Assembly: GCA_051294375.1 (NCBI GenBank)
Contig: CM119265.1
Coordinates: 16,622,005 to 16,686,004, forward strand
Direction of reading: 5' to 3'
Length of the DNA stretch: 64,000 nucleotides
Source: Paraspadella gotoi
Taxonomy: Eukaryota; Animalia; Chaetognatha
Each line of letters starts with the position of its first letter. Within the stretch, counting starts at the first letter, position 1. A program made the translations under genes and the position numbers. The notes beneath the pieces are model-generated. The model saw nothing but the letters and a program-made list of their open reading frames with translations. It was not told where the DNA came from and searched no databases. Positions 1,846 to 63,903 of the stretch are shown here, in pieces.

Positions 1846-3510
1846 TCAAACACTCATATTAATTAATGCGTCCTTATCAGCCCTTGCGCTCTTCTCGTTC
1901 TCGATGTGATAAAGCACGTCGGCGAGTGCGGCTTCAACGTACGAGAGTTCCACGTTGTCGCTCATTGGCCGCCACGAAGAACGGTCCATGTCTTTCGGGG
2001 CGTGACGGAAGCGCGGCCCAAAATTGGCCTTGACCACAGCGCTGCGATACAAACTGATGGCTGGGTAGTACGTGCCTTTATGAGCATTGTCAAAAGCTTG
2101 GCCCAGGTTCTTGCCGTTGAGGTACCAAGAGATTATCAGTCCCGGATGGGGTTTCAATTTTTTTTCCTCGATCCCCGCGTTGTCTTTCTCCTCATAATAG
2201 AGGTAACTCTTAAACTTGATCAGCGGCTTGTCCTTGTAAGTCGCCGGGAGAACCTCAGGGTAAAACTTAGTAGGCAGCTGGATGTAGCAACCGAGAATGT
2301 CGCCGGCGCCGAACTCTCGTCCGTAACTCTTGCCGTAGCTTTGGTGGAATCGCGTTCCTTTTCGCGAGCGAATCGCGTAGGAAAACTTATCATAACCGCA
2401 GGGAGCCTGCACCTGACCCAGTGCCTGTGACCAGCCGATGCGCGCGTGAGCGCCGTCGGGCAGGTCTAAGATAGTAACTTCAAAGTACCAGTTGCCGCGC
2501 GAGACGCCATGAGTGGCGCGTATCATCGAGTAGCCCTTCTCCCCGGTGACGGTGAGCCGGTCATCGTGAACCTTGAGCTGGTGAGCACGGTCGTTGAGTG
2601 AGAGGCGTACCCTCGGCTCGACAAAGCGTCGGTAGAGGTAACCGGGGATGGGTTTGCCTGCCCATTCGGCAGAGTCCTCGAATTCTTGCCGGTTGGGCGC
2701 GTGGGGGTCAGGCTCGGCCAGAAAGTACCGGTAGCCGTCTTTGTTGAAGGGATGCTCAGTCGGGTACATGGAAGGCGACTTGCCCGGCAACGAGGTGTCT
2801 TGAATCTTGTTCTTTTTCTCCCTAAACTCGCGGTTAGCGTTCTCCGCGGCCTTGCGCTTCACACCGCGTCCCGTCTTCGCCGGCGGGTCGGCCTTTTCCG
2901 CCTTTTCTTGTTTGGGCTCTCTCGGTCCGGCCGAATAGCCGGACGGGTTGAGAAGCGACGACTTAAGTGTATCGTAGTTAGGGCCGATTTTGGCCAAGTT
3001 GCCATTGACCAATCCATACTTGAGGTCGCTTAGGTCCGTCTCGTCAATTGTGAAGACATCGTTGGTCTTGAAAAGCGTCTTGGAGACGGTAGTGTGCCAG
3101 GTGTTCTTCACGCGTCGCGGCGTGGTCGTCAATGCCTCCCAGTGTTTGTCGACGTAAGGGATAATTTCTTTGTCCTTGGAGTACATCTTGCCCTCGGTTC
3201 TGTCTTTGTCCAAAGCCATCAGGTTGGCAATAGCGGTAAAACACATTTGGCCGAAACTGGCCTGCTTTTTGTTGAAACTCTCCTGTCCGGTGGAGCTGCA
3301 GAGTTTGCAGAAGAACTGGTAGTTGGTCATGAAGCAGACGCAGGGGTCCACCGGGCAGGAAACGCAATCCTTGTGGTACCATCGCTGGCAGATACCACAC
3401 TGTAGTTCGACGCTGCCTACAGTGCGTTTTTTGTTGCAATAGCAATCAATAGAGTTGGCTCCCTTGCTGGACGATCCGCCGCTTAACAGGCCGCTCGGTC
3501 CTTCGGCCAT
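1846..3510 (-). CDS. ASH2L: Set1/COMPASS subunit ASH2-like; intronless
   Basis: N-terminal atypical PHD (CYC..ELQCGICQRWYHKDC), winged helix, EHPFNKDGYRY, SPRY domain (LSLNDRAHQLK, GYDKFSY), C-terminal DPY30-binding helix. First ATG at 3510. Confidence 0.96.
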   Translation of the reverse strand: MAEGPSGLLSGGSSSKGANSIDCYCNKKRTVGSVELQCGICQRWYHKDCVSCPVDPCVCFMTNYQFFCKLCSSTGQESFNKKQASFGQMCFTAIANLMALDKDRTEGKMYSKDKEIIPYVDKHWEALTTTPRRVKNTWHTTVSKTLFKTNDVFTIDETDLSDLKYGLVNGNLAKIGPNYDTLKSSLLNPSGYSAGPREPKQEKAEKADPPAKTGRGVKRKAAENANREFREKKNKIQDTSLPGKSPSMYPTEHPFNKDGYRYFLAEPDPHAPNRQEFEDSAEWAGKPIPGYLYRRFVEPRVRLSLNDRAHQLKVHDDRLTVTGEKGYSMIRATHGVSRGNWYFEVTILDLPDGAHARIGWSQALGQVQAPCGYDKFSYAIRSRKGTRFHQSYGKSYGREFGAGDILGCYIQLPTKFYPEVLPATYKDKPLIKFKSYLYYEEKDNAGIEEKKLKPHPGLIISWYLNGKNLGQAFDNAHKGTYYPAISLYRSAVVKANFGPRFRHAPKDMDRSSWRPMSDNVELSYVEAALADVLYHIENEKSARADKDALINMSV

Positions 3511-3726
3511 GACAGCGAAGGACAAAAGGGACTAAAAAAACAAAAAAAAAACAAAGCTCTAATGAAACACGTTTTGCACAAAACCGCAAAGAAATTTTAA
3601 TTTTTTAACAATATTATATTTTTCATCTCAGCCATGACAGCAAAAGACAGTAAACAAAAAAATCAGAGCTCTCAAGCAGCACGTGTTGCACAAAGCCTCA
3701 AATAAATCTTAATTTTCTAACAAATT
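3506..3726. repeat. Degenerate tandem duplication (~120 bp) of the ASH2L upstream/start region
   Basis: gccatgacagcgaaggaca...agctct...cacgttttgcacaaa...ttaatttt (3506-3612) recurs as gccatgacagcaaaagaca...agctct...cacgtgttgcacaaa...ttaatttt (3631-3725). Confidence 0.8.
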
Positions 3727-12557: not shown

Positions 12558-13213
12558 CACGGATTTCAAATGGGAGTGAAATGAAAGGATCAAATACTGT
12601 GGCTAAATAATTCAGATTTTGCACTCTGGTAGAAAAATTGCTGACGTTTTTTATTTTCCAACTCCCAGTAGTCCAGCTTGCTTACTTTCTTAGTTATGGG
12701 CTCATGAATGGCATGGTCGAATTTCAAAAAGCAAACTTTTTTGCATTTGAATAGGACATTCCTGTTATAAAATATATTTTTATGAAAAAAATGTAAAATG
12801 TTTGAAAATGTTGGTTCATCTTATGACAACCATTTTCATTTTATACGTTTTCTCTTTAAAGCTTATAAAAAATACAAATTTTAGCTTTGAAAAATAATTG
12901 GAAAAAAACAATGATCTGGCAAGTGCCTGTTGCCTAACTAAACCTTAAAATATATTAATGAACAATTTTTTGCATGCTCCCGAAACATTATACTAAATAA
13001 TAAATGTAAAAGAAATAGAAATTTTCGTATCATTTTTTTTCACAATGAGTTTAAAAGCGCACCAGTTGCTGTGATGTAAAGTATTATCAATTTGCTTTAT
13101 AGGAACATAAACGTCTGGGAATTTTCTAACTAATGAAGAACAAATATTATTCACATTCAGTCAGTTAAGAGTTATATCAATTCTTTTCATTTCACTCCCA
13201 TTTGAAATCCGTG
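12558..13213. mobile_element. Non-autonomous TIR element with CACGG ends in the YME1L-RECQL gap
   Basis: cacggatttcaaatgggagtgaaatgaaa versus tttcatttcactcccatttgaaatccgtg (~29-bp TIR); TSD degraded. Confidence 0.8.
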
Positions 13214-13353
13214 TAGACTTAATCAAGTTAATGCACTCAGTGCAAAATTGAGATTCTGATTCCTGGTCTTGAGCAAGTCCGTTTTTCGAAAACGTTAACA
13301 TTCCTTAAATATCAGACTTAATTAATACTAAATAATATTATTTATTAAAAAGA

Positions 13354-16300
13354 CTATTTCGTTTGTTCTAACTTCGGTTCGGATATAAAAACTAGGGGGG
13401 ATTTAGTTTTCCTGTTCGACTTAGTTGAAAAATGATTAGCGTCCTTATCAGCGCATGTTGGTTGATGGTCGAGACAAAACTGGCAAACGTTTTTGCCTTC
13501 GTCGACTCCGACAAAGACAGGGGCGAACGCTGTTGTTGAGGCTGCCCGATGACGAGAGGCCTCATCCTCCAAAGCCTTTAACTCTGAGGACCCCTTAGAG
13601 TCCTTTTGGTTAAGGATGGCCTGCCATTCGGCCTCGTCGAGTTTGTCATTCCTCTCTGCGGCAACGACGCTACTATCAACATCCTTAGGAGGCGTTTCCG
13701 TCGGAGCGGACGCTCCCGAACTATCCACAGTCTCGTCATTGTTGGAATTGCGACTGACGATCTTCGCCTCTTTCACTGGCGCGAGGTCGACTACACCGCC
13801 AGCCGCGCCAGCCGGTGCCACAGAGGAAGCGGAAGAAATCATCTTGACTGCGCCGCTTCGGTGCGTGGGGGTGTTTTCTGAGTCTTGATACTAACAAGCA
13901 ACAAATGTTGTATAACCACACAGTCATTGATTAATAATTTATTAAATAACTCAAAGGCCATACTTGACACGATTTTACGACTTTGTCAATTTCTTCGCCG
14001 TCCAAAGTCTCGTATTTGAGGAGGGCTTCGGCCAGCGCCTTGTGTTCGCGGTGATACTTAAGCAAAAGTGATCTTGACCTTTCGTAAGATGCTTCCAAAA
14101 GCCGTTGAACCTCCAAAAATGTATTTAAAAAATGATTCCTTAAGCTTCATTGTACTCGGTGGTAATTTAATGGTAAACAAGTACCTCGACATTGATGAGC
14201 CTAGCAAATGACGCGTCAAGAGTGACGGCATCAGTGTCGAACGACCGGCATTTAAATCGCGTAGTCATTCCCCATGTCTTTACCATCCCCGCTGCGATAT
14301 TGGTGGCTTGTTTGAGATCCCCTAAAGGCAGAAGTTTAAAGAAAAGAATCATTGGCCGCAAGACATCGATTCCAACGGCTTTCTATCAACAAATCATTAA
14401 TACATGTATCGATTTTTTTAAAATTTGGTCTTTCATCTCATCCTTGCTTAATAAGCTTATGCATTGCTTATGAATTCTCGGGTCAATCGCCCGCCTCGTA
14501 CCCTTCGATCTTGTGGATACAAGAGCATCCCCATAAACGATCTCCTCGGCGATCCTTCCAGCGAGAAGTCGATCCATCGCCGTCATCAATTGACCCTTCG
14601 TGTCGGAATAAAGCTCCGCCTCGGGAATGTAAGACGTGTAACTGATGGACAGAAAGTCATAAGACTGTATATGAAATGAATCTTAGCAAAACAATTGGCA
14701 TTGGAATTTCAAAAGAATTTTTTTGGTCATTTTATTTTCTCTCCACTCTTACAAGAAGGGATAATTTTTGTATTGTTTGTAGGTACTTACCAATTTCCCC
14801 CCAAAAAATTATCTTTTTAAAATAGCGTTTAATATATATTTTAAAGCGAACAAATTTACAAGTTTAACCATTGAACTCACCCCAAATCGCTTTCCCTAGG
14901 AATGATAGTTAATCGATGAATCGGGTGAGAGTGAGGAGAGAAAAGGCTGACGACGGCGTGACCTGCCTCGTGCCAGGCCGTCACTTCGTTGGTAAACGAG
15001 TCAGGCAAACGTTCCTGGGATGGATGGAACGTTTCATGGATTTCATAACCAGCTCAAACCGCCCAAACAACTTTTTACTCTTTCACCTTGTGCATGTGGC
15101 CAAGAATTTGATCTTTCGCCCATTCCAAGTGCTCCAGGGCAACACCTTCCTTTTTGTCTAAAAGAGCTTTGGAAACGGCCATGTTGACCAAACGCTCCAG
15201 CGTGCCTGCGGTAAAACCGGATGTGCCACGAGCAAGAAACGTTAAAAGGCGAGAATCCACGAAGCCGTCTTTGGAAGATGAGCTTTCGGTAGATGGAATG
15301 TGGCCGGTGCCCACCGACGTGGAAGGATCCATTCTTATTTCATTGAGATACCTTTGGTAATAACGATGAAAAGCAAATTATGAGTCAGTGACTCAGTGTC
15401 CATTACATTGAGCATATTTTCCCACAATTCTGGATTAATCAGCGGCTCTGAATTAGAGTTCCGATAACCGTTAATTTTTTAGGAAATTTCGGCTTAACCG
15501 TTAAAACTAACATTTTTAAACGGTTAACCGTTAAGATCGGTTAATTTTATATTCAACTTTAAATTTAAAATATTAAGATTTAAACAAAATAAAGTATTTA
15601 ATGGTATTTTCTTTTAACTCTGGCTCTTGAATGCGCTGATAAAGACTTGAAACAGAGTCGAAACATGTCTATTTTTATGTCAAATAAAATTGTTGTTGTA
15701 ACAAAACAAATATTTTGCTAATCTCATAACACAACGAAACGAAAGGATACCATCAAATTCTAATTCTATATTTTGTTTTCTCTTTATCTCTTTTTGCTTT
15801 CTCTTTTTCTTTCTCTACTTCTTCTATTCCCCATTATTTTTGTAGTTGTTAGTTTCTTAAACGCTTGTTTTCTGTTGTTAGTCTTTCATAAACTATGACC
15901 AATGGTCATTGACCATAAATATAAATATGAATTTTAATTTATTGATAGACTGGTTGATTTATCGATTGATCAAAATATTTATTGATTAATAAATATATTT
16001 TTCAGTTTAATTAAAAAGTATATCATCATTATTCTTTTTTATGTCTTTTTTAAGATTCGTTCCCTCTATTATTAATTTTTAAATTTTTTTAAAATAATTT
16101 TTTTATTTGGTTTTTATTCATTTTTTTCATTCATTCGGTTTTATTTCATTTGCTTCTTTGTTAATTTTAAAGAGGGAAAGAAAAAGAGAGAAAAAGTAAA
16201 ATAGGGATTATTTATTTTTAGCTAAATTGAATATATATTATTGCATGAAAGGGCAAAAAAAAGGAAAAAGCAAAACGGCGAAAAAAAGAAAGAAAAAGAA

Positions 16301-18208
16301 AGGGGGAAAGAAGGGAAAAGTGAGAAAGAAAAGAAAGGAACAGGAGATAAATAAAGGGGAAGAATGAGAGAGATGAGGATAGAAAAAAAAGGAGAAAATA
16401 ACAAAGGAAAAAAGCAGGGAAAAATTGGAGAAGAGAGAGAGGGGTAAAAATATGGTGAGAAGGGGAGAGGAGAATAAGAGAGAACATAAAAAAAATAGTT
16501 TTTTTTTTAAATTTAAAGATTTCATACCAAAAAATGAAAAAAAATCACATTTGAAAATTAACCGAATTTAACCGTTAAAATGAATATATTAACGGTTAAG
16601 TTAAAATTATTTTTAACCGTTAATAACCGTTAAGAAAAAGGGTCATTCAATCAACTTTAAAATAGGCTAAAATGGAGTACAAATTCAGAAAGCTGAGCTC
16701 TGGCGATTCCGAAAATGTATTTACTTTAAGCATTTGATGCATTCTACCCCATTTTATATCGGTTTTAATTATAATATAAATAATAAAAGAAACCTATCTG
16801 AAGAGTTGCAGATCAAACGAAAAGGCCAATCCACCTGATATTTTTTATGAATTTTTTATTACTGAATTAGAAAATGTAATAGAGAGACATTTTTAAATTT
16901 CAACTTGTATCCTTGAAAATGATACGTTTTTAAAACTTTAACCCTGAATTCTTTCTAACTGGAACGCGTTTATCAAAATGTCTCTCTATTACATTTTACA
17001 AATGTTTTTAAGATTGCTAATCAAATTTTTAATTCAATATTATTGCAGTCGTTCTAGGCTGCAAATCGTCTTCAAATTCATGTGTAGATTCATTGTAGCT
17101 CGAATTTCTTTATCATCATATTTAACTGAAGATTTGTTCATGACTGGAAAACCAACAGAGTAAACTGAGATTAATTGCTTAATTCTCCCCTTCTAAATTA
17201 TCCTATACCGTGATTTAACTTCTTACCTAGAATTTCGTAACAACCAGATTGAAAAACAAATCTTTAGAAAATGTGCTTACCCATTTAACTTAACAATTTT
17301 GTTATTTACCCATTTAAAAAAAATTATTGAAAATGGAATGTTTACATATAAATAAGAACTTATTTTTTTGTGATTACTGATGACTATAATGTATTTCTCG
17401 ATATATTAGCTCTAACACATCAATGATTACGTATTGTTATGCTGAAAGACCTTTCCTCTTAACACTTAACGGTTATCGGAACACTACTCTGAATATATCC
17501 TAGCAGTCTTTATATTTCTTATTATTATCTAATCAGGTGATAATGAACTACGAAATACAATTTTAATTCCATAACGAATCACGCCAATGTCAAATTCGGG
17601 TACAGCGTACTAATAACTTAAAAAAGGGTGCTAAAGAGATTTTGGTCACAAGAAAGACTATTCTCTATAAAAATACTATAAATCGACGCATGATGATGTT
17701 CTCCATTCCCACGAGAGGGAATCTGGGGGATATGTCGTAGCAAGGGGAGGAGGTAGCTTGTTGACTACCTCTCGCTTCTTTACTTTTCCGATATCAAGTT
17801 ATTTATAAAGATTTATCACTGATGCTCTCAGTGGCTGCCATTGGCGAAACTATATTTATCGAAAATTTAAAAGATACGTACTTTTATAAATATCAGATAA
17901 GGATCAAGTCTGTCATTTTTTCTGGTTTTTTAACCGTTTACATATCAATAAAATATTTTTCAAAAAAACAAAGGATTTCATCTGTAAAAGCTACTTTTAC
18001 ATGCACCTGGGGTTCCCCCGCATTATTACAGTCTTTATATGGCGACTTACGACCGGTCTCTCCCGAAACCTGATCCACTTTTATCAACTTTTTTTGTTGG
18101 TCAAAAAACAATAGCAACCTCACCATGACCAAATCTGGAGGGAAAAAAGCGAAGGGGTTTGTCCCACGATTCGCCCCTCCGACTAATTCTCTTCTCTCCT
18201 CTCCTCTT

Positions 18209-18253
<45 letters not shown>

Positions 18254-21200
18254 AACAAAACAAAAAACCAACAAAAAAACCGACGCAAACGCGTGCAAAG
18301 ACTAAGTTGCGAAAAAGGGAAATGTAAAAAATTATTAACTGGCCACAACATTCATACGACAAATTTAAAAATCATTATAATCATCTAATACATGTAAATA
18401 CCAAAACACTTGACAGAATTTTAATCTTTTTTTTTTTGCTCTTGTTCGAAGACATCAAGACATCAGCGGTAAGTCCATGGGGAAGACGGGGGTCGCGGAG
18501 GGAAGGCATCTCTGCCGACGAAAGATTTCCGAGGAAGAGGATAATATTTAGAAAGGGTCAAAGGGGAACGAGAAGAGGCTGATCGGTCGGAAGAGCGAGG
18601 ACGCCGACGAGGGAAAGGTCCTCCCTCCGTCGGATAGAAAAAGGTGAAGAGGCAAATTCGTCACATTAGTCTTGCGATTCACATCGTCTTGGTCACTCGA
18701 AAACTTAGTTCAGAAAAAAAAAATTTCTACATTATTTATCACGTTTGACTCGTTCGCTAAAATGGAAAACAACGACATAAAGAAAAACGGGCCAAACATT
18801 ACGAAAACTCTTGAAAAAAAAATCCTTGCTTACAATGCTTTAAGGTAAGTTGTTTGTTAAACTATGTATGCAAAAATGAATGTACATAATACTCTGACTA
18901 TTTTAAAATGATACGACAAAAATAATTATTATTAACAAATCTTTGACACCAGACTAAATATTAATCCATAATTAACGATTGGTTAATAAAATAAATATTG
19001 AAAAGAAAATAGTTCGTAAAGATGCTCGAAATAATTGAGACCAACTTGCCAAAAATTTTTTTATTAAAATTTAGTTTAGTACGGTAATTTTAACAACTTA
19101 GGTAAATAACAAATTTTTAAAAAAACCCTGACGATTTAATTTATATACATGGTGACAATTTAACAAGCGCCGGTAGAAATATGCTGTCATTTGCAAGCCA
19201 GTGGTTATTTCATTGATTTTAAAAATTAGTTTAGTAGAAAATACTAAAACTATTTATATGTTAAAATTTTATATTGATCAGTTAATATATGCATTGACAA
19301 TGAGTGGAGAAAGTTGGCTTTTCAAATCGCGTTTCATTTTTCAACTCACCGTTTTTAAATTCAATTTTTTTTGGGAACTTTTAGCACTTTTTTAAATAAA
19401 GTATTTATTAAAATATTAATAATATTAATATCCTCAGAATATGAAGAGATTGATATACTTACGAAAGCTCTAACATAAAAAGTAAGCTGCCCAGCCTTGG
19501 TTCAATTAAGAATATTAAAAGTGAATTATTTAAAATTTTAAATCTTTTTTCAAAATATATGACCTGCTTAAATTATTATAACAAAAAATATTATTATTTA
19601 TATCAGTATCATGAAAAAGCCAGAGAAAAAAAGATTTAAGATAGCCAATCACAATTTGATAAAAATCATAGATTTACTCTCCAGCTAAAAAGATGTCTCG
19701 TTTTTGAATATTCTAATTAAATTAAAGCTGGGCCAATTAAATTTTATACTACAGTATTTGTAAGTATATAATTCTCTTCATATTTTTAAAGGCTTTCTGA
19801 GGATATTAATATTGTTAATATTTTAATAAATACTATGTTTAAAAAAGTGCTAAAAATTCCAAAAAAAAATTGTATTTAAAAACTGTGTTGGAAAATGAAA
19901 CCCGATTTTACAAGCCAACTTTCTCCACTCATTGTCAAGGCATATCTTAACTGATCAATAAAATTTTAACACATAAATAATTTTAATATTTTCTACTCAA
20001 CTAAATTTTAAAATCAATGAAATAACTACTGGTTTGCAAATGACAGCGTATTTCTACCGGCACTTGTAAAATTGTCACCATGTGTTTTATTCGTTTACAA
20101 CAATTAGTTGAAACAGTACATTCAAAAGGGCATACAGCTTTACACCATTACAGATAAACACTTAAATTGTACAGTTTACAATTCAACAAAATATAATCTT
20201 AAACTTAAATTTATAAATGATATCCTACTTAAAACGAACAACGTTAGTCTAACAAATAAAAAAACCAAAATTGATATTATTGAGGAAAGAATGTTAACTA
20301 TTTTTTTTGTATTACTGTTTTGATTCTTTCTATGTAGCATTAAATAAGAAAATTTTGTTTGTTTTCAGACAACAAATTTTTTCTTATTATTAGTAATAAA
20401 AAACGGACATGTTTCGGGTAGCCTTCAACCAAATCTTGCGCTAATGAAGGCTCGCAATATAGCCGAAACGTGTCCATTTTTTTTTAATAATAATAAAAAT
20501 TAAATCATTGTCTGAAAACAAAAAACAATTTTTCTCATTGTATTACTCTAAAACGAAAACAGGGTATGTAGTACATCGTTATAAAAAATATAAATACAGA
20601 GAAATTTGTTACAAAATCATCATTTCACAAGGCAGCAACTATGTTTTACGTAACTGTTGACAATATATTAATATATTGACGATCTTATGTCTTTTCATGC
20701 CATTTACAGTTAGATTGGATTTTGAACGTCAAATATACATGTATTTTACCTTAACTTTTGTTCTCTTTTTTTCAGAGATTCGGCACCCCGAAAGACCTGC
20801 GACGGCATCAGGTCATCCACACCGGCCAGAGGCCTTACCGATGCAAGCATTGCAAAGCCGATTTTACGCAAAACGGCAATATGCTGCGCCATGTGAAAGC
20901 CAAGCACCCAAAGGAGTATTCAGAGATTCGAAAAAACAAATCTGCAATCAGCAACAAAGAAAATCCTCCAAAAAAGACTTACCGTCACCTACAGCCCACC
21001 TCCTGTCAAGTTTGCCATATAGTTATGGACGATCCAGAAAAGCTCAAGGAACATGCATGCCCTACAACCGTTTATTACCAATGCCCACATTGTGGCACGA
21101 GTCATAACTTAAAAGAGATGCAGCAACACCAATTTATTTATAAGGAAGCCATTTTTCCTTGTGACGAATGCCACTTGAAATTTAACAGTCAATGTTACAT

Positions 21201-24200
21201 AATGCAGCACTACTGCGCCAAGCGACAATCGCAGATGGCTCAGGAGAAGTTGATTTATCAGCCTCCCGCTCCAAAGTCAATGCAACTTTGCCCAAAGATT
21301 ATGGCCGGATCGACTTTCACTTCACCTGCGACAGCGTTTACGCAGACTGAATCGTCCAGCACTTTCACTCTCAACAGGACCTCTGAAGACGCAAACCTCT
21401 ATCTTAATCAAGAACACGAGATGAAACCGCCGGCGGATCTACTCGAATACCTCAACGATTTCGGCAAAACCGTGATGGAAGACCCGAGTATTTTTTGTGG
21501 CGAACCAGCGAGCTTTGAAAATCCAGTTCCTTCGCAAAATTTCTACGCTCCAATGACGACGTCTGTTGCCGCTCCCTTTCAGCAACATCAGGTTCCGTCT
21601 TCAAATCAGATTGCTCCCAATCATCTTCCCAATGTCCCAATGCACTTCGCCGGACAAGATTTCGCCACGGCACCTTGTCACTCGTCGTGGCAAACCGTGG
21701 CGACACCTTCCCCCGTCTTTAGCGACCAATCAAGCATGACCCCTTCGCCAGGTTCAGAGGCGCTGAATTCTTCGGATGCCACCTATCAGTCGTTTGACTT
21801 TACCATCGCCAGCTTCCCTACTATGAACCAGGACCCGTGGATCGTTAAACACGGGGAAAATGTACAATCGCAAAATTGAAATTACCAGAATTCTATTGTT
21901 TTTCTTTCTGTAAATACCGTTATAATTCGTTTTATTTATATTTGATTAAATTCTATACAGTTGTTATTGTAAATATATATTTGTTCGTTAATATTAATTT
22001 GTTTTTCAATTAAAAAAAAAACGCAGATAAATACTAGTTAACATTTTAGCTACCTTCCAAGTATGCTGCGCCGTTCGGCTTGGTTCGGCGGGTAAAGTTT
22101 TATTTCCAACTCCATGAATCCCGAATTAAGAAGCGATTTATCGAGTTGATCTCGTTTTCGCGCAGCGGTCATGACAACAATTCCGCTGTCCGACGGAATC
22201 GCCGACATTTCCTAAGAAAAAAATAATTTTAGTAAACTAAATATATAGAGGATATATAATGTTTTAAGTAAAAATGTGTGATAGTTATATTTCTTCCTGA
22301 CCTAGTTTTCTAAATAGATGAGTAGAATAGATAATCCCTCTATTTCCAAAAGAACAATAACAACCCTCTCCTATTAATATTATAATAGTTTTCAGATTTA
22401 GTAATAAAAAACCAAAATTATTAAAACTAATATATATATATATATATATTCTTCGACAAGTTATTTTTCTGTCTATCATTTTAAGGTTAATCAGATTCGC
22501 CTAAAATTCTTCATGATTGAGTTTGACCGGTCTTTTTTGAGTCCCGTTATTTGTTTGACCGTCATAATGTTGGACAAACTCTTGTAGTTCGTCGATTTTA
22601 TTTACCTTTTGTAAAAGTGTTTAAAACAAACAATTGATAATGTCCGATTTGCGTGGCTTAGCCGAGCTTAACTGAGAGATCATTGCTATATTGATTGCTT
22701 ACCGATGCTTCCTTTTGCTTACCTCCAGTTTTAGTTAATGCTTGTTCCAATAGACTGGCGTTTTACCTGATTACTATCTGCGATATTGATACTCTCAGAG
22801 GGTGAGCGAGAGACGGAAAACCCGGCTCATCAATAATTTGGAGAGATACGAGACTATTTTTTAGTTCTTATTTAGACTCAGCAAAGAAACGATTCGTTCG
22901 TCCCTAATACAGTTTTATGGGGCAACTTATGGATATTTTACTGAAAATAAAGGCTTAGCATTTGATTCGTGATTTTTCCTTCAAAATTGACCACGTGATT
23001 CAGCGGAAAATTCAGCTAGTTTTCCATATAGCTCCCTTGTCAAATTACACAGAACCAGCAACGTCTCGAAGGCGCTACTCTGCGGACGTGAAGCATAAAC
23101 GAAACGAAACGAAACGAAAGGAAATTATCCAAATCTAAAACTCAAAATAGCGAAACATGTAATTTTCCAATTCTCATTTTTTGGCACCTGTTTTAGTTGC
23201 ATACGAATGCCGACATTATCCATAAGGCCGTCGCCGTCTACAAAGAGAACGCAAGGAGCACGGGCCTTAGCCACTGCGAAGGCGCGTTTTAAAGTCTCCG
23301 CGTCGCCGCCTTCCACTTTGACAAAGGGGACTTCCGCTTCGCCGGCGACTGCGCGTGCAAATGTCTTCTTGCCGCAAGATCGGGGTCCTTGAGTCATAAG
23401 CGAAAAAGCAAGCGCTTAAAAACTAATATGTACCATTGTACATTATACATGGTCAAGAGGGTGATGTGAAAGTTTTGAATCAAAATTTAGCAGATATATC
23501 ATATTAGTGAATACTATTTTGTAATTATTTTTCTTTTTTTACATATATAATAGCCCAGTCAGCTTATTTTGTATATAATACTACCCTTATATAATGTCAA
23601 AATTTCGAAAGAATTTTTTTTAAATTCTGAGAACAGATTCAAATTCCTTGTAAAAAGTTGATAAAAGAATATATAAACCTTTTTCAAAAAATATGTCATT
23701 AAGTAGGTTAAAATTTTAAAAAACTATATTTTTAAACTGGAAATTAAAAATCGGCGTTTTAAATATAGTTTTTTACATTTTTGACCAACTTAATGAAAGA
23801 ATTTTTAAAAAGGAATTATACTTTCTTATATCAACTTTTTGCAAGGAATCCAAATCCGATCTTAAATTTTAAAAAATTGCATTTTGAAATTTAAGCCTCT
23901 TATATACTTATTACTATATATAAATATAGCTCACTGGTGCCCACTTATGTATAAAATTAAAAAGTAAATTTACCAAAGTATTTTTATTGGTTTTTATTTT
24001 TATATTTTATATACTAAATTTTAATTTTCTAAAATTTTATCATTTTCAAATCACTAATGGTCATTGGTCATACAGATCTTGTCGGAGTTATAAAACTATT
24101 TTTTAAATTTTTGTCAATACCATTCTCAGATTAGGTTATCGTCGGAAAATGATACAAAATTATTTTAATAAAATTATTTTACTATCGCCAACCGGGGTTG

Positions 24201-24273
24201 GGGGGGTTTAGGGTAAAATTGCGATCTTGTGGCAGTAACCACACGTGACCTTCTGCGATCGACCAACTTATTC

Positions 24274-24305
<32 letters not shown>

Positions 24306-27300
24306 ACATGATTTCACCGGTTTCGTATTTGACCTTATAATGTCTCATTGTTTAGACTTAGTATCAATTGTTATTGTTATTATTTTATCGTTGGAGAATA
24401 AACCATTCTCGATTCAAACCTCGTGTCGTAAACAACTCCTGCCACACGTGGTAAGCCACGACGTTACAAAAGAAAAAAAAAATCCAAATCAAAAACTCTC
24501 ATAGTCTTCTCCCCATCGGGTCGAAGCCTCGGTGAGGGGATGTGTGGCAGTAACCACACGTGACCTTCTGCGATCGACCAACTTATTCAAGAACTCTCTC
24601 TCTCTCTCTCTCTCACATGATTTCACCGGTTTCGTATTTGACCTTATAATGTCTCATTGTTTAGACTTAGTATCAATTGTTATTGTTATTATTTTATCGT
24701 TAGAGAATAAACCATTCTCGATTCAAACCTCGTGTCGTAAACAACTCCTGCCACAATCTCAACTTTTCCCCGATGCTCTTTTGTTCTTTTTTACTGACAT
24801 AGAAAATGCCTCCGTTTTAGCGATCACAGCGACATCTTTAGGATCTTTTGTTAATACTTAAGTACAGATTTCCGAAGGCAGTGCACAGCTGATTCTGATT
24901 GGTTCCCGTGATTTCGATAGATTCTAATCAAATTCTGTTGAAATCTTTTAGTCTTTTAGTTGTCACTGGGTTTTTAGTGCCTTTTTAGAGCAGTTTAAAC
25001 TCTCTTTAGATATCTCGGAATTCTTATTTTTTGTATGATCGCTGGATTGGTGGACTTTTCTATGATAGAAGCAACTTTTTTCGTTATTATTGGCTTCAGA
25101 AACAAGTAAGAAAAGACACTTTAAACTTATACAGAAGGCTTCATATTATAAAATGAGGTACCCCTTTTTTGTGACCAGAGCTCGTTCCGAGAAAACTACT
25201 GGACCAAATTTATTAAAATTTATAATGAACGATCTTTATGTGAATACTAATAAAACTATCGAGGCGAATTTCAATATTTGACCGCTGAGCCGAGATATAT
25301 TTTTTTATTATTTTTGTTTTGAACAGTTGCAAAGACGATTACTCTTCCACAAAAACATATTTATTACCTCAAAAATATTCATTTATCTTAATTTTTAGCT
25401 TCATGAACATCAGCAGTTAAATTCAAATTTGGAATAATTTGAAAAAATTGGATGAACCATGCATCTTCAACCATGCTTAATTATTGCAAATTTATCCATT
25501 TTAGTTCTAAAATGTTTTTTTCTTATGTTTAAAACGTCAATGCACCTGATGCTACTAAAAAATTTGGAAAAATGAAAAAAAACATTTTTAAAATTTCTTG
25601 GCCCCCCAGGGGTCCACCCCCAGGGCCCTGTATCTCTTGTCAGGGGTTGAATATCAAAATTCGCCTCGATAGTTCCATTTATATAGTCATTAGCACTCTA
25701 AATGTAAAATTTCATTAAATTCGATCAGGTAGTTTGGTGGGAACAGATTCTGGTCACAAAAAAGGGGTACCACATTTTATAATATGAAGCCTTCGGTATA
25801 TATATTTGCTAAGTTTTGTATTAAATGTTTTGTTCCTTTGGCCCAGAACTTCTAACACACAAACACACGTCACTGACACTTTCGTCAAGTCCTGGGCTTC
25901 GCAGTTCGTCGTTCTTCGGCCTTAACCAACGTCGTTCTGCTGAGACTTTGTCGTCAACATCTCCAGGGCGTTTTGACCGGCGCCATCGTCTCTTGTGCGC
26001 CATTTATACCCGAATTATTCTGGTCTTGAATGCGCAGAATTAGTCTTGACAGTTAGAAATCAACGACAGCCACTTAGTTACAGGTGGTTTAGGGGTGGGT
26101 GAGGGTTAGGGTTAAGAGGATTTAGGGTTTCGTTAGGAAAGAAAGTCCTGAAATTTTACCAATTTTTGCGGACTCGCTGCGGACTCTTTGCGGATTTTTT
26201 GCGGACTTTTTTTTAAAGTCTGTCGAATTCTAAAAAAAATGTAAACGTCAACTTTTTTATATTGGAATATCATTTAGAATTGAATTTTTTGTTCTGATTT
26301 TGAATTTCCATCGCAATATGACTAACTGTAATATGCAGATTAACTTAAAGTAATGGCAAAATTTTTTTTTTTCTTTTTTCAATCAAAAAATGTTTTTTGA
26401 GAGATACGAAATGGATTTTTTGATCTGATTTTGAATTCCCAACGAAATATAACTAACTGTAATATGCAGATTAGCATAAGTATAGGCAAATTTTTTTTTT
26501 TTTTTCAATCAAAAATTTTCTTTGAGAGATTCGAAATGGATTTTTTGATCTGATTTTGAATTTCTATCGCAATATGAGTAACCGTAATATGCAGATTAGC
26601 ATAAAGTAATGGATTTTTTATTCTTTATTTCAATCAGAAGAATCAAAATAGATTTTATTGATCTGATCAGATTAGCATAAAATATAGTCAATTTTTTTCT
26701 TTTTTTTTTCAATCAAAAATGTTCTTTGAGAGATTCGAAATGGATTTTTTGATCTGATTTTGAATTTCTATCGCAATATGAGTAACCGTAATATGCAGAT
26801 TAGCATAAAAGTAATGGGATTTTTTTTATTCTTTATTTCAATCAGAGAGATTCGAAATAGATTTTTTGATCTGATCAGATTAGCATAAAATATAGTCAAT
26901 TTTTCTTCTTTTTTTTTTCAATCAAAAATATTCTTTGAGAGATACGAAATGGATTTTTTGATCTAATTTTGAAAAATTTCCATTGCATTATGACTTACTG
27001 TAATATGCAATTTTATGTATTATGACTAATTATAATATGCTAAATAGCATAAAGTATATGCATTTTTTCCCTCTTATTCAAAAAATCATCTTTAAAACTT
27101 TAAACTGATTTTTAATTCTCAAAGCATTATAACAAATTGTAATATGTAAATTAAAAGAAAATCTAATTTTTTTTTTTTTTTAAATAATAATTGAGAGATA
27201 CGAAATGACCATCTTGATTTGATTTTTAATTCTAAATACATTATGAATAAATTTATGTAAATTATCTTAAAATAAAAATTATAATGAGGGTTAGATTAAC

Positions 27301-30300
27301 TTATATTTTTTTTATCAACTTGAGTTAAAAAAATCTAACAAAATTCAAATCCATATTATACAACTTTTTAATATGACAACTATAATTTTAAAAAGCAATT
27401 TGTTTGAAACTGTTTTTATAAATTATTTCATAAATTATATATTTTTAAATTACATAATACTACTATTTAATATTAAATATTAAAAAATTATTCCTAATAA
27501 GAATTACATATTAGAAATTGCATTCATCATAACACAATTAGAATTAAAAAAATTTAGCAGCTGATCAGATAAACTTTTATCATTGTCTGATTAATGTTAA
27601 GTTAATTTAGTAGTATATTTTTTTTGCTATTTAGGTTTGTTAAAAGTAATTTAACAAATTATTTTTTAAGTTAATTTAGTAAGCGAGAATATATTATTGA
27701 GAATTTAGTTGTAAATATTCAGTTTTAAAAGTTCAGTTCATACAACGGCTTTCAAAATACCTGCCTATTTTAACATATTGAATTACACGTTTTAGATATT
27801 TAGCTATATTTTTTGAAATTTTTTAAAAAAGAATACAGCTTTTTATAAGCTTATATTCTTAGTATGTAACAGGATAAAAGATAAAAATAATAAGTTAAAT
27901 AAAAAAACAATAGTTATGTAGCTCTATTAGATACACACTCATATAAAACTTATGAGATTGTTTACCAAGTTATTTAGAATTTTTGAATTTATCATTTGCG
28001 TTCAATATTAAATTTTTCATCTTCCATTAAAATCCTTTTTTTTTTGTTTTTATTGTTCTATAATAAGTATTGATGATTTTCGGTTTTTTAAGTTTTAGAT
28101 ATTTTGCTTTTACCAAAATGACACTTTAAAATCATGGTGTTACCACGAATATTTAAATCGATTTTGGTTCAAAAACCTCAAGATGCCGAGGATGTGGTAC
28201 GAATCAGTGCATCATCTGATTTAAAGTGTCAGGACACATCATGCAAATCACTGAACTATGTTCAACGTTTAAGTAAGTGTTAGAAACATGTTCATGTAGA
28301 TTTATATATCAAATTGTATTATATGATCAATTGTAAACAATATTTATGCGAACAATAAATTTTAGCTTTTATTACTCTTAAATTGCAAGAATAACTATTT
28401 TAAGTGGTTTATTACAAATTTATTAGGGATAAATTACTCTTCTCTGGTGGCATTCTGCTCAACAAAATTACGTGCAAGAAGCCAACATATTGAATTGCAT
28501 TTGGATGCCGGGCAACCTCTGATTGATGGTACCGGTTCGCGAATAAACAACTGTATTGACTCCCAAGGTGAATTGACAATTTTTTTATTAGGAAGTACCA
28601 AATATCACTAAATTACATATTTTTCAGGCCGGTCATTGAATTCTTTACAAAATGCAAATCCATCAACGTTTAGTCTTAACTCTCGACGAGTGGAAGATGT
28701 TATGATAAGATGCCCCCATTATGGATGGAGAAGGTAAATTTATATTATGGTTAACGAAGTAATTTTTTAAACTTTTGACTTTTTTTTCATTAGGGAGGAA
28801 TCCCATGTTCGCGGAAAGTTGAATTCTACAAAGAACCTTTCCAAGGCGTCCTCCGGTCAACAAACTAGTGTTTTATATAGAGTTTTGCATGGACCTTTAA
28901 ATGATCGAATTTTCTCACGTCAAAGATCACGTTTAATTTTCTGTCCTTTTGGCTGTATAAATGGCGGATGTCTTTAGTAAGAATTCTCTACTATTTCCAA
29001 CTTTATTCTTTAATCTAAAATATTTATTTGTCGGATCTGCTTATCAACAGATCCCGACTCTATAATTCACTTTGTCGGTCCGCCCCCTCAATATTGTCGG
29101 GCAAAACCCCAAAACCCCGGTCGGCGAAAGTAAAATTAAAAAAAAAGGTCAAAACAGAAGACTAAGTCTAGAAGCGATGACTAAATAGGCTATGTGTGGA
29201 ATTTTAATTGAGATATTATGGCAACGGGAGGATTGCCTGTGATACCCGGGGCGCGGGGTATCTCAACAACTGGCGTAGGGGCTGCGGAGTGCGGACCCTC
29301 AGTGACCGCCACCTGTCACAGGCATGTTTAAACCGGGTCCGTCAAATTCAAGCCAGAACCGGGATACCCAGGAATTGAACCCGGTTGCAAAGAGATGATT
29401 TTGCCTGCTCAGCCATTGAGATGAGGCTGAGGACGGACAGCAGTGAGTCAGCTTTAAATCGTACTGCCACAATGTATTAATACCCTTAAAAGTGTTAAGT
29501 ATTGTAAGTATTTTAAAGCGTATTAGATGATTAAATACGATACTTTATAAAAATGTAAAATAAAAAAATATTATATATTGAATATAATAATATTTTTAGA
29601 TGAAAACTTAAAAAAAAACAACAAAAAAAACAGCATCAATATAAAATACAACCGCATCTCACAAAGGATATTTTAAACTCACCAAAAAAAACTACCCCTT
29701 TGGGAGGCTTTCCTCCCAGTCTTTTCGCCATAACGTCTGTGTTTTTAGGTTCCTTGAGCAAGTCAACGATTCCTTGCAAATCCTTCTTCACTTTGATATA
29801 TCCACGAATATCCTTGAACCTGACGACGTTGTTATCATGTTTGACAGGAACTGGATCAGGCGATCCGCTGACGAGTTCGCTTTCAGGAGCTGATTCCGTC
29901 GGCACCTCGGTCGGTACTTCCTCATTGGGTTGTTCTTCCTCCAGAATGACGGCAGGCGGCGCCGCTACTTTCTCTTCGTCCGGCTTGAGCGACTCTTCGA
30001 CTGGTGAGTCGTCTGGCGCCAATGGGGGAACCACTTCTGACGCCGTCGATGGATCAACCTCGGATTTACCTAATGCGCGAAGAAGATCAATCAGGATCTT
30101 ACACAATTTGAGCTATTTGAGTAATGAGTATTCAATTCGAGTTGGGAGTATCTTCTGCGTATAACTTATTTTCTGCTTAAGAGACTTTCTAGTTTCTACC
30201 AGAATAACTCATATTATCGTTTAATCATATCGCACTTGGATAAACTTAAAATAAGCTAAAAGGTTGTAAAGTTGATAAAAAAAGAAGAAATTTTGACCTG

Positions 30301-30811
30301 AATCGAGCAGCGTTTCTGGAACGACTCCGACGGGCACATCGCCAGTTTCCCCCGGCAACGTCTCCACCGAATCTTTAAGGAGATCTTCGGTAGATGGCGC
30401 CTCGTCACAGCCCCGCTCCGATGAATTCTGCTGTTCGGAAACCACCAAAGCAGAGGAATTGAATGTATGGCTTGGGGTCGAGGTAGCAATCTTTTCCACT
30501 CGCTTAAGGCGCTGGTTGTCGTAAATCAAGTAACATATCGCGACCCCAAGGGCCAACGGAACGGCCTGGCGTTGCCACTTTCCCCGAATTACTTCCTCTT
30601 CAGGAGTTTCCGAGGTGTTAAGATGGCGTCTGAGGTAGAGAAAGAAGTTCTTGCGTCGCAAAGGCGTCGAAGGCAAAGGACCAACTGAGCGAGTAACCGA
30701 ACGAAAAGCGGCTGACATTGTTAGAGATCTTCCACGAGGCAATTGGTTATTGAGGGTATAAATAGAGGATCGCGATAAAGGCGATGTACAAAACTTACTC
30801 AAAACCCCCAT
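13354..30811 (-). CDS. YME1L/FtsH-like mitochondrial AAA metalloprotease paralog with degenerate ATPase motifs; ~10 exons
   Basis: Presequence plus TM; [93 protein letters not shown]. Exons approx 30811-30298, 30069-29683, 23387-23188, 22211-22054, 15351-15087, 15014-14881, 14641-14502, 14320-14184, 14110-13964, 13890-13354. Confidence 0.88.
15454..17486. mobile_element. Non-autonomous hAT element (2.0 kb)
   Basis: TIR TAG(A/T)GTTCCGATAACCGTTAA; perfect 8-bp TSD CTCTGAAT (15446-15453, 17487-17494); repeated AACCGTTA motifs; purine-rich low-complexity core. Confidence 0.92.
15636..15669 (+). ncRNA. Decayed minimal hammerhead-ribozyme-like motif (Penelope-type)
   Basis: CTGATAA-a-GACT..AGTC-GAAACATGTC; core G8 is A, so probably inactive. 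Confidence 0.45.
18762..21879 (+). CDS. C2H2 zinc-finger transcription factor nested antisense in a YME1L-like intron
   Basis: Exon 1 18762-18844 (..CLQCFK|GTAAG), exon 2 20776-21879 ([26 protein letters not shown]..., further CxxC fingers, P/S/Q-rich tail). Needs one extra A in the A9 run at 18814-18822 to be in frame with ATG 18762. Confidence 0.85.
19148..20082. mobile_element. Palindromic foldback MITE (~935 bp)
   Basis: catggtgacaattt..gccggtagaaata versus tatttctaccggc..aaattgtcaccatg; arms complementary over most of the length; TA on left flank. Confidence 0.9.
20350..20535. mobile_element. Inverted Penelope-like terminal-repeat relic with hammerhead-like core
   Basis: Palindrome (tgttttcagacaa / ttgtctgaaaaca; ggacatgtttcgg / ccgaaacgtgtcc) enclosing CTAATGA-a-GGCT..AGCC-GAAACGTGTC at 20441-20474. 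Confidence 0.5.
23457..24056. mobile_element. hAT-type palindromic MITE
   Basis: Imperfect 8-bp TSD ATGGTCAA/ATGGTCAT; homologous to 7121-7440 and related to the 33738, 37187 and 38728 copies. Confidence 0.8.
24228..24755 (+). mobile_element. Complete TRIM (miniature non-autonomous LTR retrotransposon)
   Basis: LTRs 24228-24446 and 24543-24755, each TGTGGCAG...CTGCCACA with TATAA and AATAAA; 96-bp interior with PBS-like TGGTAAGCCACGACGT and PPT GGTGAGGGGA; 4-bp TSD ATCT. Confidence 0.92.
25132..25796. mobile_element. Tc1/mariner-type MITE
   Basis: TIR C(A/C)GAAGGCTTCATATTATAAAATG..GGTACCCCTTTTTTGTGACCAGA; TA flanks on both sides. Confidence 0.88.
26265..27230. repeat. AT-rich tandem array (~120-bp units with shorter variants)
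   Basis: Recurrent gagat(a/t)cgaaatggattttttgatctgattttgaattt..aatatgcagattagcataa. Confidence 0.85.
28134..28977 (+). CDS. Putative 4-exon, 189-aa gene or pseudogene nested in a YME1L-like intron (weak RPA/MEIOB OB-fold resemblance)
   Basis: Exons 28134-28272, 28427-28567, 28628-28733, 28794-28977 joined at GT-AG sites give 570 nt with no internal stop; GC-richer than flanks. Confidence 0.45.
29029..29135. mobile_element. Helentron/DINE-like (HINE) fragment
   Basis: gtcggatctgcttatcaacagatcccgac hairpin plus tctataattcactttgtcggtccg; inverse copy at 35465-35540; aaccccggtcggNgaaagtaaaatt shared with 48044, 48108 and (inverted) 24172. Confidence 0.6.
29195..29471 (-). mobile_element. Solo-LTR-like or tRNA-derived SINE-like element
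   Basis: TGTGG...CCACA ends; minus-strand A-box-like TGGCTGAGCAGG and B-box-like GGTTCAATTCC; core shared with 11434-11504. Confidence 0.4.
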
Positions 30812-54950: not shown

Positions 54951-55530
54951 TCTTTTTTTTCCGTCGCTTACAACCACCAGACGCTAGCTACAGTAATAGC
55001 TAACTGAGTTGGCATAATTTTCTGCTAGATAAAAAAATATAATTTTTATTTCATTCAAAATGATGCGCGACAACAAAAATTTAAGGTGACTTTTCAACAT
55101 ATTCGAAAAACAGAAGTATTTTTTCACGAAACTAATCCAGTGCTTGAAAGGAAAAAGAAAATATTGGGTTACTTAAAACCTGTACTTTATAATACATGAA
55201 GGCGAAAAACAGCATTTTATCTAAGCAATACGCATTTTTCTAGTGCTAATCAAATAGTCACCTCATAACGGAGGACAGATCTGGAATTTGAGAATAATAA
55301 TTTACATTTGAACACAAAAATTAAAAAAGGAGTTCTATGGCTACCAGACATTCAAAAACGTATAAAATATGATGGTAAATATTATTCTTAGTTTTGAATC
55401 ACTACCCTGAACTACATATGACATAACGTCAGGCACAGCGGCAAAAGAATGGAAAAAGAATGTTCGTCGGAGGCTTTTTTACTGCAATTGACTAGAAGAC
55501 TCTTGAATCCTTGGCTAGAAAAAAAATCCT

Positions 55531-60928: not shown

Positions 60929-61269
60929 CTTTGATCGTGAGACTCGTTGGAAGCTTCGAAAAATAAGTTACCCGCGACTGACGTTAGTTAATAGTGTATG
61001 GACCTGCCTCTCTTAAAATGAAAGTAAACGTAAAAAAAGAACAAAAAAAGGAGAAGAAAACTAAAATTAACTATTTTATTTAAAAAAAAAAACAACAAAA
61101 AAACCACAGGCAATGGAATAAAAATTAAGAAGAATTTAACTCAAAATGTTTAATAAATCATTATGATTGTCATATAAAATTGTTAACGAGTTTTTTTTAT
61201 TAATTTCAATCTCAGCACAATAATCTATTTGTTTTTAAGTTAACTCTTTTTTGTTTTACTTCATAAATG

Positions 61270-62391: not shown

Positions 62392-62441
62392 TTTTTAAAA
62401 TCCTGTACATGTATATGACTATGAATGAGAATGAGATAGAT

Positions 62442-63722: not shown

Positions 63723-63903
63723 CTGGAATAAGCCCAACTCTGAAATCTTTGATCGAATATCGTATATTGTAAAAAAAGAGTAGATAAATTCCTGGCACAA
63801 TTTGATAATTTAATTTCATGATTAAAAAAAAACGAACCCAAACGCCAAAAAAAGTTTTATAAAACATCACATTTTCAGTCTGTTAAAAGAAAAAAATGGA
63901 GCT

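Follow-up and report, generated by a model that had tools for sequence, protein, structure and literature searches.

FtsH-family proteases are defined by an ATP motor coupled to a zinc site. YME1L is normally needed, and both natural subunits of the m-AAA protease carry recognisable motor motifs. The FtsHi proteins of chloroplasts have lost the zinc motif and kept the motor. In a 64,000-nucleotide stretch of the Paraspadella gotoi genome (the window), we analysed a YME1L-like gene whose protein shows the opposite pattern, with the motor motifs lost and HExGH kept; the original prediction, made from the same DNA, had drawn this contrast with FtsHi.

The zinc ligands of the family are HExxH plus an Asp, and the DGF motif and both Arg fingers act in trans between subunits; m-AAA forms AFG3L2/paraplegin hetero-hexamers (PMC12994072). 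In human YME1L, D677 lies at H599+78, and an inter-domain bridge, D575-K618, is needed for degradation (10.1101/2025.01.30.635686). In AFG3L2, a Gly lines the S1' pocket, to which the adjacent subunit contributes a residue, and a Walker-B-dead form is reported to cleave small peptides although it hydrolyses no ATP (10.1101/551085). Casein is hardly cut by E. coli FtsH when Walker A is mutated or ATPgammaS is the nucleotide (10.64898/2026.05.06.723347); motor loss is therefore not in itself enough to make a protein-degrading enzyme. LonC is reported to degrade unfolded proteins without ATP (PMC3391209).

Gene structure, origin and conservation

The gene extends over 13354-30811 on the minus strand and consists of 10 exons encoding 872 aa in one stop-free frame; its 9 introns are all GT-AG. 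The span given before, 14881-23387, lies inside the gene but covers exons 3-6 only. The motifs quoted with it are all present in the window on the minus strand, and two further 5' exons encode the presequence, membrane anchor and acidic linker.

30298..30811, minus strand: exon 1 (aa 1-171), start codon, predicted mitochondrial presequence, weak anchor, start of the acidic linker
29683..30069, minus strand: exon 2 (aa 172-300), acidic linker rich in Pro, followed by the beginning of the AAA domain (VRFKDI..LGGK.PKG)
23188..23387, minus strand: exon 3 (aa 301-367), Walker A, pore loop 1 deletion, Walker B, shortened pore loop 2 region; Pfam AAA match E 1.7e-6; same motor changes in P0001
22054..22211, minus strand: exon 4 (aa 368-420), DGF motif, sensor-1 and Arg finger positions, all changed
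15087..15351, minus strand: exon 5 (aa 420-508), AAA lid with insertion, D500, linker Gly
14881..15014, minus strand: exon 6 (aa 509-553), HEAGH (H523, E524, H527), R542, edge-strand region PRESDLG; Pfam M41 E 8e-11
14502..14641, minus strand: exon 7 (aa 553-600), GRIAEE helix and TRSK with R597
14185..14321, minus strand: exon 8 (aa 600-645), D601, M618, K623 (Gly at K623 in canonical proteins)
13964..14110, minus strand: exon 9 (aa 646-694), helices at the C-terminal end of M41; Pfam M41 E 3e-8
13354..13890, minus strand: exon 10 (aa 695-872 and stop), tail with little conservation
13186..13353, minus strand: 3' untranslated stretch in the same spliced contig; the record ends at 13186

In contigs of one run, presumed to be RNA and covering exons 5-10, the last five introns were spliced exactly as modelled with 0 mismatches; none of the listed runs is annotated as RNA. 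From the length of the spliced contig and from the ortholog P0001, we infer that exon 4 is in the mRNA. Runs X2 and X3 gave no cover of the locus, which does not prove absence. Searches of the window with four canonical proteins (tblastn) and a canonical-only profile in six frames matched only modelled exons and showed no alternative exon with canonical motifs; the profile gave 8 matches at E<1e-4, all in modelled exons, and the next at E 8.3. The window contained no canonical YME1L copy and no Rfam match. The gene is not a pseudogene.

A full-length ortholog, P0001, and further fragments carry the same changes; besides P0001, the orthologous sequences comprise P0282 and genomic fragments. Judging from the contigs and these relatives, the protein is expressed and conserved, with its changes fixed across several species. 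The best matches were animal YME1L at 39-44% identity, and Pfam on exons together with PDB sequence and fold matches gave the chain order AAA domain, then M41 peptidase domain. TIGR01241 scored 255 against a cut-off of 600 (fly control, 620). A first tree placed the pair on the animal side with a support of 100, a second gave a 100/100 split and wider sampling 88/96; the stem is long, and an AU test did not reject placement outside the animal set (p 0.113). In the wider tree the pair fell in a weak polytomy (55/71) with arthropod and other animal sequences, which points to an invertebrate, perhaps an ecdysozoan, and no canonical sister sequence was resolved in the trees. Similarity ranking agrees with the proposed YME1L origin, and descent from an animal YME1L is the probable reading of these comparisons.

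Between the species, 178 of 184 residues (97%) are identical in M41 and 135 of 160 (84%) in the AAA domain (p 9e-5). Ordinary YME1L shows the reverse: among 4113 canonical pairs of comparable distance, none had M41 above AAA (pairs non-independent and mostly from flies). Selection has moved to the protease domain. A long stem (1.4-1.9 changes per site) followed by short tips (0.04-0.05) fits a change of function and then stasis. The JGI metagenome scan yielded 2 loci, both canonical, and an Atlas search with the core returned only generic bacterial AAA+M41 clusters. Of six single-exon proteins encoded nearby, 0 had a match in the sequence collection searched.

Motor domain, protease site and termini

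Walker A reads GPRSCGKK at aa 301-308 (first base 29683, rest 23387-23365), with Thr replaced by K308; this variant, GPR[SC]CGKK, was found in 3/3 sequences covering it. Pore loop 1 is deleted by 9 aa (10-residue segment at aa 324, 23319), and the pore loop 2 region is 11 aa shorter in the alignment. Walker B is LFVDG at aa 348 (23247), with Glu replaced by G352. In the 18-residue segment at aa 383 (22166), the sensor-1 Asn has become R385; the Arg fingers are replaced by N396 and F399, and the inter-subunit DGF motif by EMSAI / EMANI. Both species retain G301, G306, K307 and D351 and share the identical replacements K308 and R385. The features of an ATP-dependent protease (Walker A GxxGxGKT, Walker B hhDE, sensor-1 Asn, Arg fingers, DGF, aromatic pore loops) were thus not found. 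All seven motif patterns were matched by 125/125 canonical relatives, and only HExGH by the window protein and P0001. Seventeen other proteins in the motif screen miss one or two patterns.

Conserved columns were defined as at least 90% identical in 71 canonical representatives. Both species keep 29/65 in the large AAA subdomain, 11/15 in the lid and 21/27 in M41 (Fisher p 0.005), and the lost columns include every one of the six named motor residues (chance 0.024). The lid contains a family-specific insertion of ~23 aa, and exon 5 occurs in 8 distinct versions among 13 rows. The predicted AAA fold matches 5ubv with Z 25.2 and rmsd 2.2 Å over 225 residues. The degeneration noticed earlier (changes in Walker A and B, sensor-1 and the Arg fingers, and deletion of pore loop 1) proved to extend to the DGF motif and pore loop 2. 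By its motifs, the motor is dead.

The protease site keeps HEAGH at aa 523 (14972), with H523, E524 and H527, and the third zinc ligand position, D601 (14319), at H+78 as in human YME1L. HEAGH and the Asp of GDLKQAT had both been listed as retained, correctly; GRIAEE (aa 581, 14559), however, had been mistaken for the third ligand, which in this family is the Asp, here D601 (PMC12994072). The inter-domain salt bridge survives as D500-R542, and the linker Gly is kept. Retention of E524, the two His and the Asp is not significant alone (chance 0.34 given 21/27 M41 columns kept).

Near-invariant M41 columns are changed at G597R, A598S, G549E, G580A and G623K, and in five of the six M41 losses a bulkier residue has taken the place of Gly/Ala close to the cleft or the ring base. 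G597 and A598 (at least 90% conserved in the 71 representatives) are changed in 5/5 covering rows, with RSKGD in place of G[A/C]xxD; R597 occupies the position of the S1'-pocket Gly (mapped from 10.1101/551085). Because this near-invariant Gly is Arg in all five covering sequences, the site, described before as intact, is so at HEAGH and D601 but not at these columns. Counted by offset, K623 corresponds to G671 of AFG3L2, a position at which R/E substitutions make the ring unstable. In the monomer model, pLDDT is <50 for the edge-strand region.

Residues 1-65 include 11 K/R and 0 D/E, a presequence-like composition. The anchor (aa 83-100, 30512-30565) has a hydropathy of 1.5, versus 2.8 in fly YME1L, and with so weak an anchor the localisation is uncertain. 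P0282 likewise has the start MGVLSK and the anchor; a presequence-like N-terminus and a weak hydrophobic segment are conserved in three sequences. An acidic tether of ~150 aa separates anchor and core, and the exon 2 linker holds conserved blocks (23 residues). AVPL at aa 83 was rejected as an IAP-binding motif; it is conserved in neither P0001 nor P0282 and also precedes the anchor. At the other end, exon 10 encodes 178 aa with CQFCLDH at aa 830 (13485). The ~175-aa tail of the original prediction is therefore present, but its CQFC..H..C motif is absent from P0001 and a zinc-binding tail was rejected. The tail is 35% identical to that of P0001, has pLDDT mostly <50 and gave no Pfam or Atlas match, a blank that shows nothing.

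A proposed peptidase without a motor and its alternatives

We predict, with a probability of about 0.5, that this expressed and conserved YME1L descendant is a LonC-like zinc peptidase independent of ATP hydrolysis and of altered specificity. The parts for splitting ATP and for pulling are lost and the zinc site is kept, so the protein likely cuts peptides or unfolded proteins without energy. By composition, the presequence and one weak anchor would import the protein and place its core in the intermembrane space on the 150-aa acidic tether. The AAA domain, with its predicted fold, the P-loop G..GK and the Walker B Asp retained, probably remains a static, perhaps nucleotide-binding collar on the protease ring, in which K308 and R385 possibly give in cis the positive charge of Mg2+ and the Arg fingers. 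With both pore loops deleted, the channel would be wider, and peptides and unfolded chains could diffuse in to be cut by the H523/H527/D601-bound zinc with E524. With R597 in the S1' pocket, the preference for an aromatic P1' residue would give way to another, most simply to one for acidic residues. Because the cis and trans motor residues are both gone, a ring of like subunits is favoured over a partner powering canonical YME1L. Of the two roles first suggested, an ATP-independent peptidase thus appears the better, and a subunit of a hetero-oligomer is weakened by the loss of the trans-acting Arg fingers and DGF motif along with the cis parts. A literature search that reached neither subscription papers nor bioRxiv supplements found no account of a motor-dead YME1L, which does not prove its absence from print, and nothing on the cleft.

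R597 could also plug the S1' pocket, which argues against a peptidase. R597/K599 and E549/D551 would then close the cleft of a doubly dead pseudo-enzyme that binds zinc and serves the intermembrane space as a holdase, a scaffold or a trap for substrates. The change of G597 and A598 in every covering row, at the pocket lined by the equivalent Gly in AFG3L2, points this way; the retention of the four catalytic residues is compatible with chance, and the 97% conservation could reflect binding surfaces. Yet a catalytic Glu without structural need survived the stem on which all catalytic motor residues were lost, and the salt bridge needed for degradation is kept. FtsHi pseudo-proteases, moreover, lose the zinc motif itself. 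We consider a doubly dead protein unlikely.

A canonical copy probably exists, because YME1L is normally needed, and the protein might join it in a mixed i-AAA ring, adding a second cutting specificity or a brake on the ATPase of its neighbours. The m-AAA hetero-hexamers, the S1' pocket that takes a neighbour's residue, and the fold and most ring-forming helices kept in the predicted model are consistent with this. Against it, the DGF motif and the two Arg fingers, whose action is in trans, are lost, so that every subunit of this kind would silence the one next to it; the anchor is ~150 aa farther from the core than in canonical YME1L, K623 alters the ring base, and the trees resolve no canonical sister. 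Such a ring is doubtful.

Quite improbable is a bolder form of the peptidase reading, that this is the sole YME1L of its lineage, the ATP-driven i-AAA motor having been given up for a tethered processing peptidase that is acid-specific, needs no energy and is built on a self-contained nucleotide site without hydrolysis. Should these animals lack any canonical YME1L, the intermembrane space would prove able to do without quality control driven by ATP.

A rewired active ATPase, in which K308 and R385 stand in, in cis, for Mg2+ coordination and the Arg finger, so that slow hydrolysis gates the protease, would agree with the P-loop residues and D351 kept in both species, the identical replacements, the Walker A variant in all three covering sequences and the 84% identity of the AAA domain. 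However, the Walker B Glu has no acidic replacement, hydrolysis could not drive translocation because both pore loops are deleted, and LonC with the same losses is described as binding ATP without splitting it (PMC3391209). We regard this as very improbable. A pseudogene, a wrongly joined model or overlooked alternative exons carrying canonical motifs can practically be dismissed: the read comparison covers exons 5-10 in a run presumed to be RNA, but 872 aa run without a stop, five joints are spliced without mismatch, the orthologs are uninterrupted with the same junction sequences, and the window holds no canonical exon.

Comparison with known systems

YME1L/Yme1 (i-AAA; PF00004 + PF17862 + PF01434, M41) shares with the window protein the domain order, a presequence and a single, here weak, anchor (both predicted), the AAA fold, the HExxH + Asp zinc site, the linker Gly and the inter-domain salt bridge. 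Here, in contrast, all ATP-hydrolysis residues, both pore loops and DGF are lost, the S1' Gly is Arg, an early anchor and an acidic tether of 150 aa take the place of the canonical N-terminal region, and a lid insertion and a ~180-aa tail are present. The m-AAA hetero-hexamer (AFG3L2/paraplegin) shows that mixed rings occur and, in a Walker B mutant, that peptides can be cleaved independently of ATP, but it faces the matrix with two anchors and is not the nearest family. Some of the natural changes fall at positions tied to human AFG3L2 disease (G671 and Arg-finger equivalents).

LonC of Meiothermus (MtaLonC) has the same degenerate Walker A/B, replaced sensor-1, lost Arg finger and retained protease site (PMC3391209). 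It is a bacterial soluble Ser-Lys Lon protease with an unrelated catalytic domain, whereas the domain here is M41, so the likeness is one of working only. The gene most likely works like LonC; the activity was shown in LonC, and what is shared here is the motif pattern.

FtsHi and the Ycf2-FtsHi chloroplast import motor (structural matches 8xku and 8xqw; 20-24% identity) are likewise FtsH descendants minus one of two activities, but they are plastid proteins that lose the protease and keep the motor. The known natural uncoupling drops the protease; the window protein would be its mirror image in an organelle of eukaryotes, one that several species share as a fixed state, and a natural test of how far M41 proteolysis depends on the motor, of the role of the AAA domain once hydrolysis and translocation are gone, and of one S1' residue setting specificity.

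Gene structure and splicing

The window is gene-dense animal DNA, with Pfam matches to Ash2, RQC, MCM, Nse4, WD40, RNase PH, UCH, B9, PRA1, G6PD, MeaB and histone deacetylase domains in the neighbouring genes. The YME1L-like gene has a stop-free frame of 872 amino acids, and two of its nine introns exceed 6 kb. The span originally predicted (14881..23387) falls inside this gene but takes in exons 3-6 alone.

30811 to 13354, minus strand, YME1L-like gene, ten exons and nine GT-AG introns
1849-3531, Ash2 gene, single long uninterrupted frame
53304-54983, B9-domain gene, single long uninterrupted frame
59357-60967, G6PD gene, single long uninterrupted frame
61273-62394, MeaB/MMAA-like gene, single long uninterrupted frame
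62445-63809, histone deacetylase gene, single long uninterrupted frame

The compact style of the single-frame genes contrasts with the intron-rich YME1L-like, RecQ-like and MCM genes. Two kinds of repeat fill both large introns (19147-20083, 25128-25800, 23555-23937, 26235-27255): long, MITE-like inverted-repeat elements whose arms are 74-92% complementary, and a degenerate tandem array with a unit of 125-200 bases. Intron 2 also carries a near-identical tandem duplication (24228-24755; spacing ~310 bases; identity 100% over 72 nt and 99% over 162 nt), which either arose recently or is an echo of the assembly. Intron 4 houses, on the opposite strand, a C2H2 zinc-finger gene (20755-21879, plus strand; 374-codon frame; Pfam zf-H2C2_2, E 2e-7) with a possible 5' exon near 18762-18844; a join tried for this exon did not stay in frame.

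Exons 1-2 encode a basic, acid-free N-terminus (11 K/R versus 0 D/E in aa 1-65), a single weakly hydrophobic segment (aa 83-100) and an acidic linker of 150 aa. Short linker blocks (29 protein letters; window 29970-30310) are near-identical in three sequences and are candidate docking or processing sites; outside them the linker is acidic and fast-changing.

The 3' region of the gene was present in one of the three listed sequencing runs, which we presume to be RNA. In contigs of this run introns 5-9 were missing, each with precisely the length given by the model (72, 239, 180, 74 and 73), and the exon pieces displayed had no mismatches to the model. Depth was ~200-230 on exons versus 4.6 for a contig covering an intron. 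Introns 5-9 are thus spliced as modelled. One contig extended beyond the 5' end of exon 5 by 187 letters. Exon 4 would account for 158 of these, and the 29 left over match the overlap at another joint; the length of this extension, rather than its letters, suggests that exon 4 is included in the mRNA. Alternative exons with canonical motifs, the possibility held against the original prediction, were sought with canonical proteins and a canonical-only profile, and none was found in the window.

Family and descent

The protein belongs to a small conserved family. With exon 5 as query, six of 195 candidates matched, among them P0001, an uninterrupted 881-aa ortholog. Identity between P0001 and the window protein was 135/160 in the large AAA subdomain, 85/98 in the lid and 178/184 in the M41 peptidase domain, but 69/150 in the linker and 63/180 in the tail. 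A full-length query returned no further member in the best 120 of 3658 matches, the remainder of which were arthropod-type YME1L (39-41%). A search of shorter proteins gave six high-identity fragments among the 120 matches listed, expanded to 16 sequences; the fragments run into introns at the intron positions of the window gene. Eight distinct exon-5 versions occurred in the 13 rows compared, a set that left out two further exon-5 members (P0247 and P0248). From 150 listed matches of a representative search, 149 sequences were taken; these added P0262 and P0282. P0262 is the first exon of the P0001 type; P0282, an N-terminal piece of 312 aa, represents a third form, which has the start MGVLSK, anchor, exon junctions and Walker A variant in common with the others.

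Three genomic fragments (P0217, P0254 and P0255) continue across the intron 7 position and end at intron 8, which shows that those relatives lack intron 7. The lid bears a family-specific insertion of ~23 aa (window 15240-15320, aa about 428-452), in which STSVGTGH is invariant in 13/13 rows despite low-confidence prediction; it is possibly a binding or regulatory loop. Elsewhere in the searches, P0256 has an internally duplicated SRH-to-protease stretch, possibly an annotation artefact, and P0257, an FtsH, carries three AAA modules.

The protein probably descends from YME1L. In three trees, it and P0001 fell among animal YME1L (support 100 in the quick tree, a 100/100 split, and 88/96), with a stem 1.4-1.9 changes per site long and tips near 0.05. 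One tree placed them sister to arthropods (94/84), which became a weak polytomy under wider sampling; no canonical sister was resolved in the trees, so the gene may be either a paralog or the sole copy, and a position outside the animal set remained acceptable in an AU test (p 0.113).

Motor and protease site

Seven motif patterns were matched by 125/125 canonical rows; the window protein and P0001 matched HExGH only. Lost are the Walker A Thr (K308), the Walker B Glu (G352), the sensor-1 Asn (R385), both Arg fingers (N396, F399) and the DGF inter-subunit motif (roles as given in PMC12994072, according to which the fingers and DGF serve the adjacent subunit). Pore loop 1 is lost through a 9-aa deletion, and 11 aa are missing from pore loop 2; G301, G306, K307 and D351 are retained. 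Judged by sequence, the motor is dead. Against 71 representatives (drawn from 221 canonical among 238 proteins), conserved columns were retained at 29/65 in the large subdomain, 11/15 in the lid and 21/27 in M41. The AlphaFold2 model of P0001 has a mean pLDDT of 61, most of the core lying at 80-95 and the linker and tail scoring low. It matched T. maritima FtsH 2ce7 (Z 32.6) and 5ubv, an i-AAA ATPase domain (Z 25.2, rmsd 2.2 A), which suggests that both folds are retained, in a model leaning towards the canonical alignment used.

Conservation between the window protein and P0001 was reversed, M41 (97%) exceeding AAA (84%; p 9e-5). The same order occurred in 0/4113 canonical pairs at similar distance and in 296/7750 overall, these pairs not being independent. 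H523, E524, H527 and D601 are spaced like human H599, H603 and D677 (10.1101/2025.01.30.635686); all four would be kept by chance with probability 0.34 at the overall rate of retention. The third zinc ligand, originally assigned to GRIAEE, is Asp D601, at the spacing of human D677; the AFG3L2 ligand is D649 (10.1101/551085).

The protease site called intact keeps its zinc and catalytic residues but is remodelled at six conserved M41 columns: K542R, G549E, G580A, G597R, A598S and G623K. The human D575-K618 bridge, required for degradation (10.1101/2025.01.30.635686), corresponds to D500-R542. The AFG3L2 S1' pocket comprises V571, L603, G645 and the neighbour's L615 (10.1101/551085); by offset, G645 corresponds to R597, an Arg in 5/5 rows, and G671, at which R/E substitutions make the ring unstable, to K623. 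Given R597, K623 and the other M41 changes, cleavage specificity is likely altered, and a blocked site is possible.

Mechanism and relation to known systems

Walker-B-dead AFG3L2 cuts small peptides without hydrolysis (10.1101/551085), and ATPase-blocked E. coli FtsH hardly cleaves casein (10.64898/2026.05.06.723347); what the motor provides is access rather than chemistry. Loss of both pore loops would be expected if substrate access had turned passive. On these grounds, and with LonC as precedent, we favour an ATP-hydrolysis-independent peptidase at a probability of about 0.5, and we infer its localisation, oligomer state, nucleotide binding and activity likewise. This was one of two options in the original prediction.

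A doubly dead scaffold, with the peptidase silent as well as the motor, seems doubtful. The second original option, a subunit of a mixed ring, is equally doubtful and ranks below the peptidase: its missing trans-acting residues would silence the neighbours. A rewired ATPase is improbable for a motor with these losses, and an artefact is scarcely credible.

Plant FtsHi is the mirror case of this protein. Although probably descended from YME1L, the window protein lacks the motor features that define an ATP-dependent i-AAA protease. A literature search outside subscription papers and preprint supplements found no description of such a protein. LonC has the same motor losses, binds six nucleotides and, without ATPase activity, degrades unfolded proteins (PMC3391209). 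By analogy, the window protein most likely works like LonC without being one.
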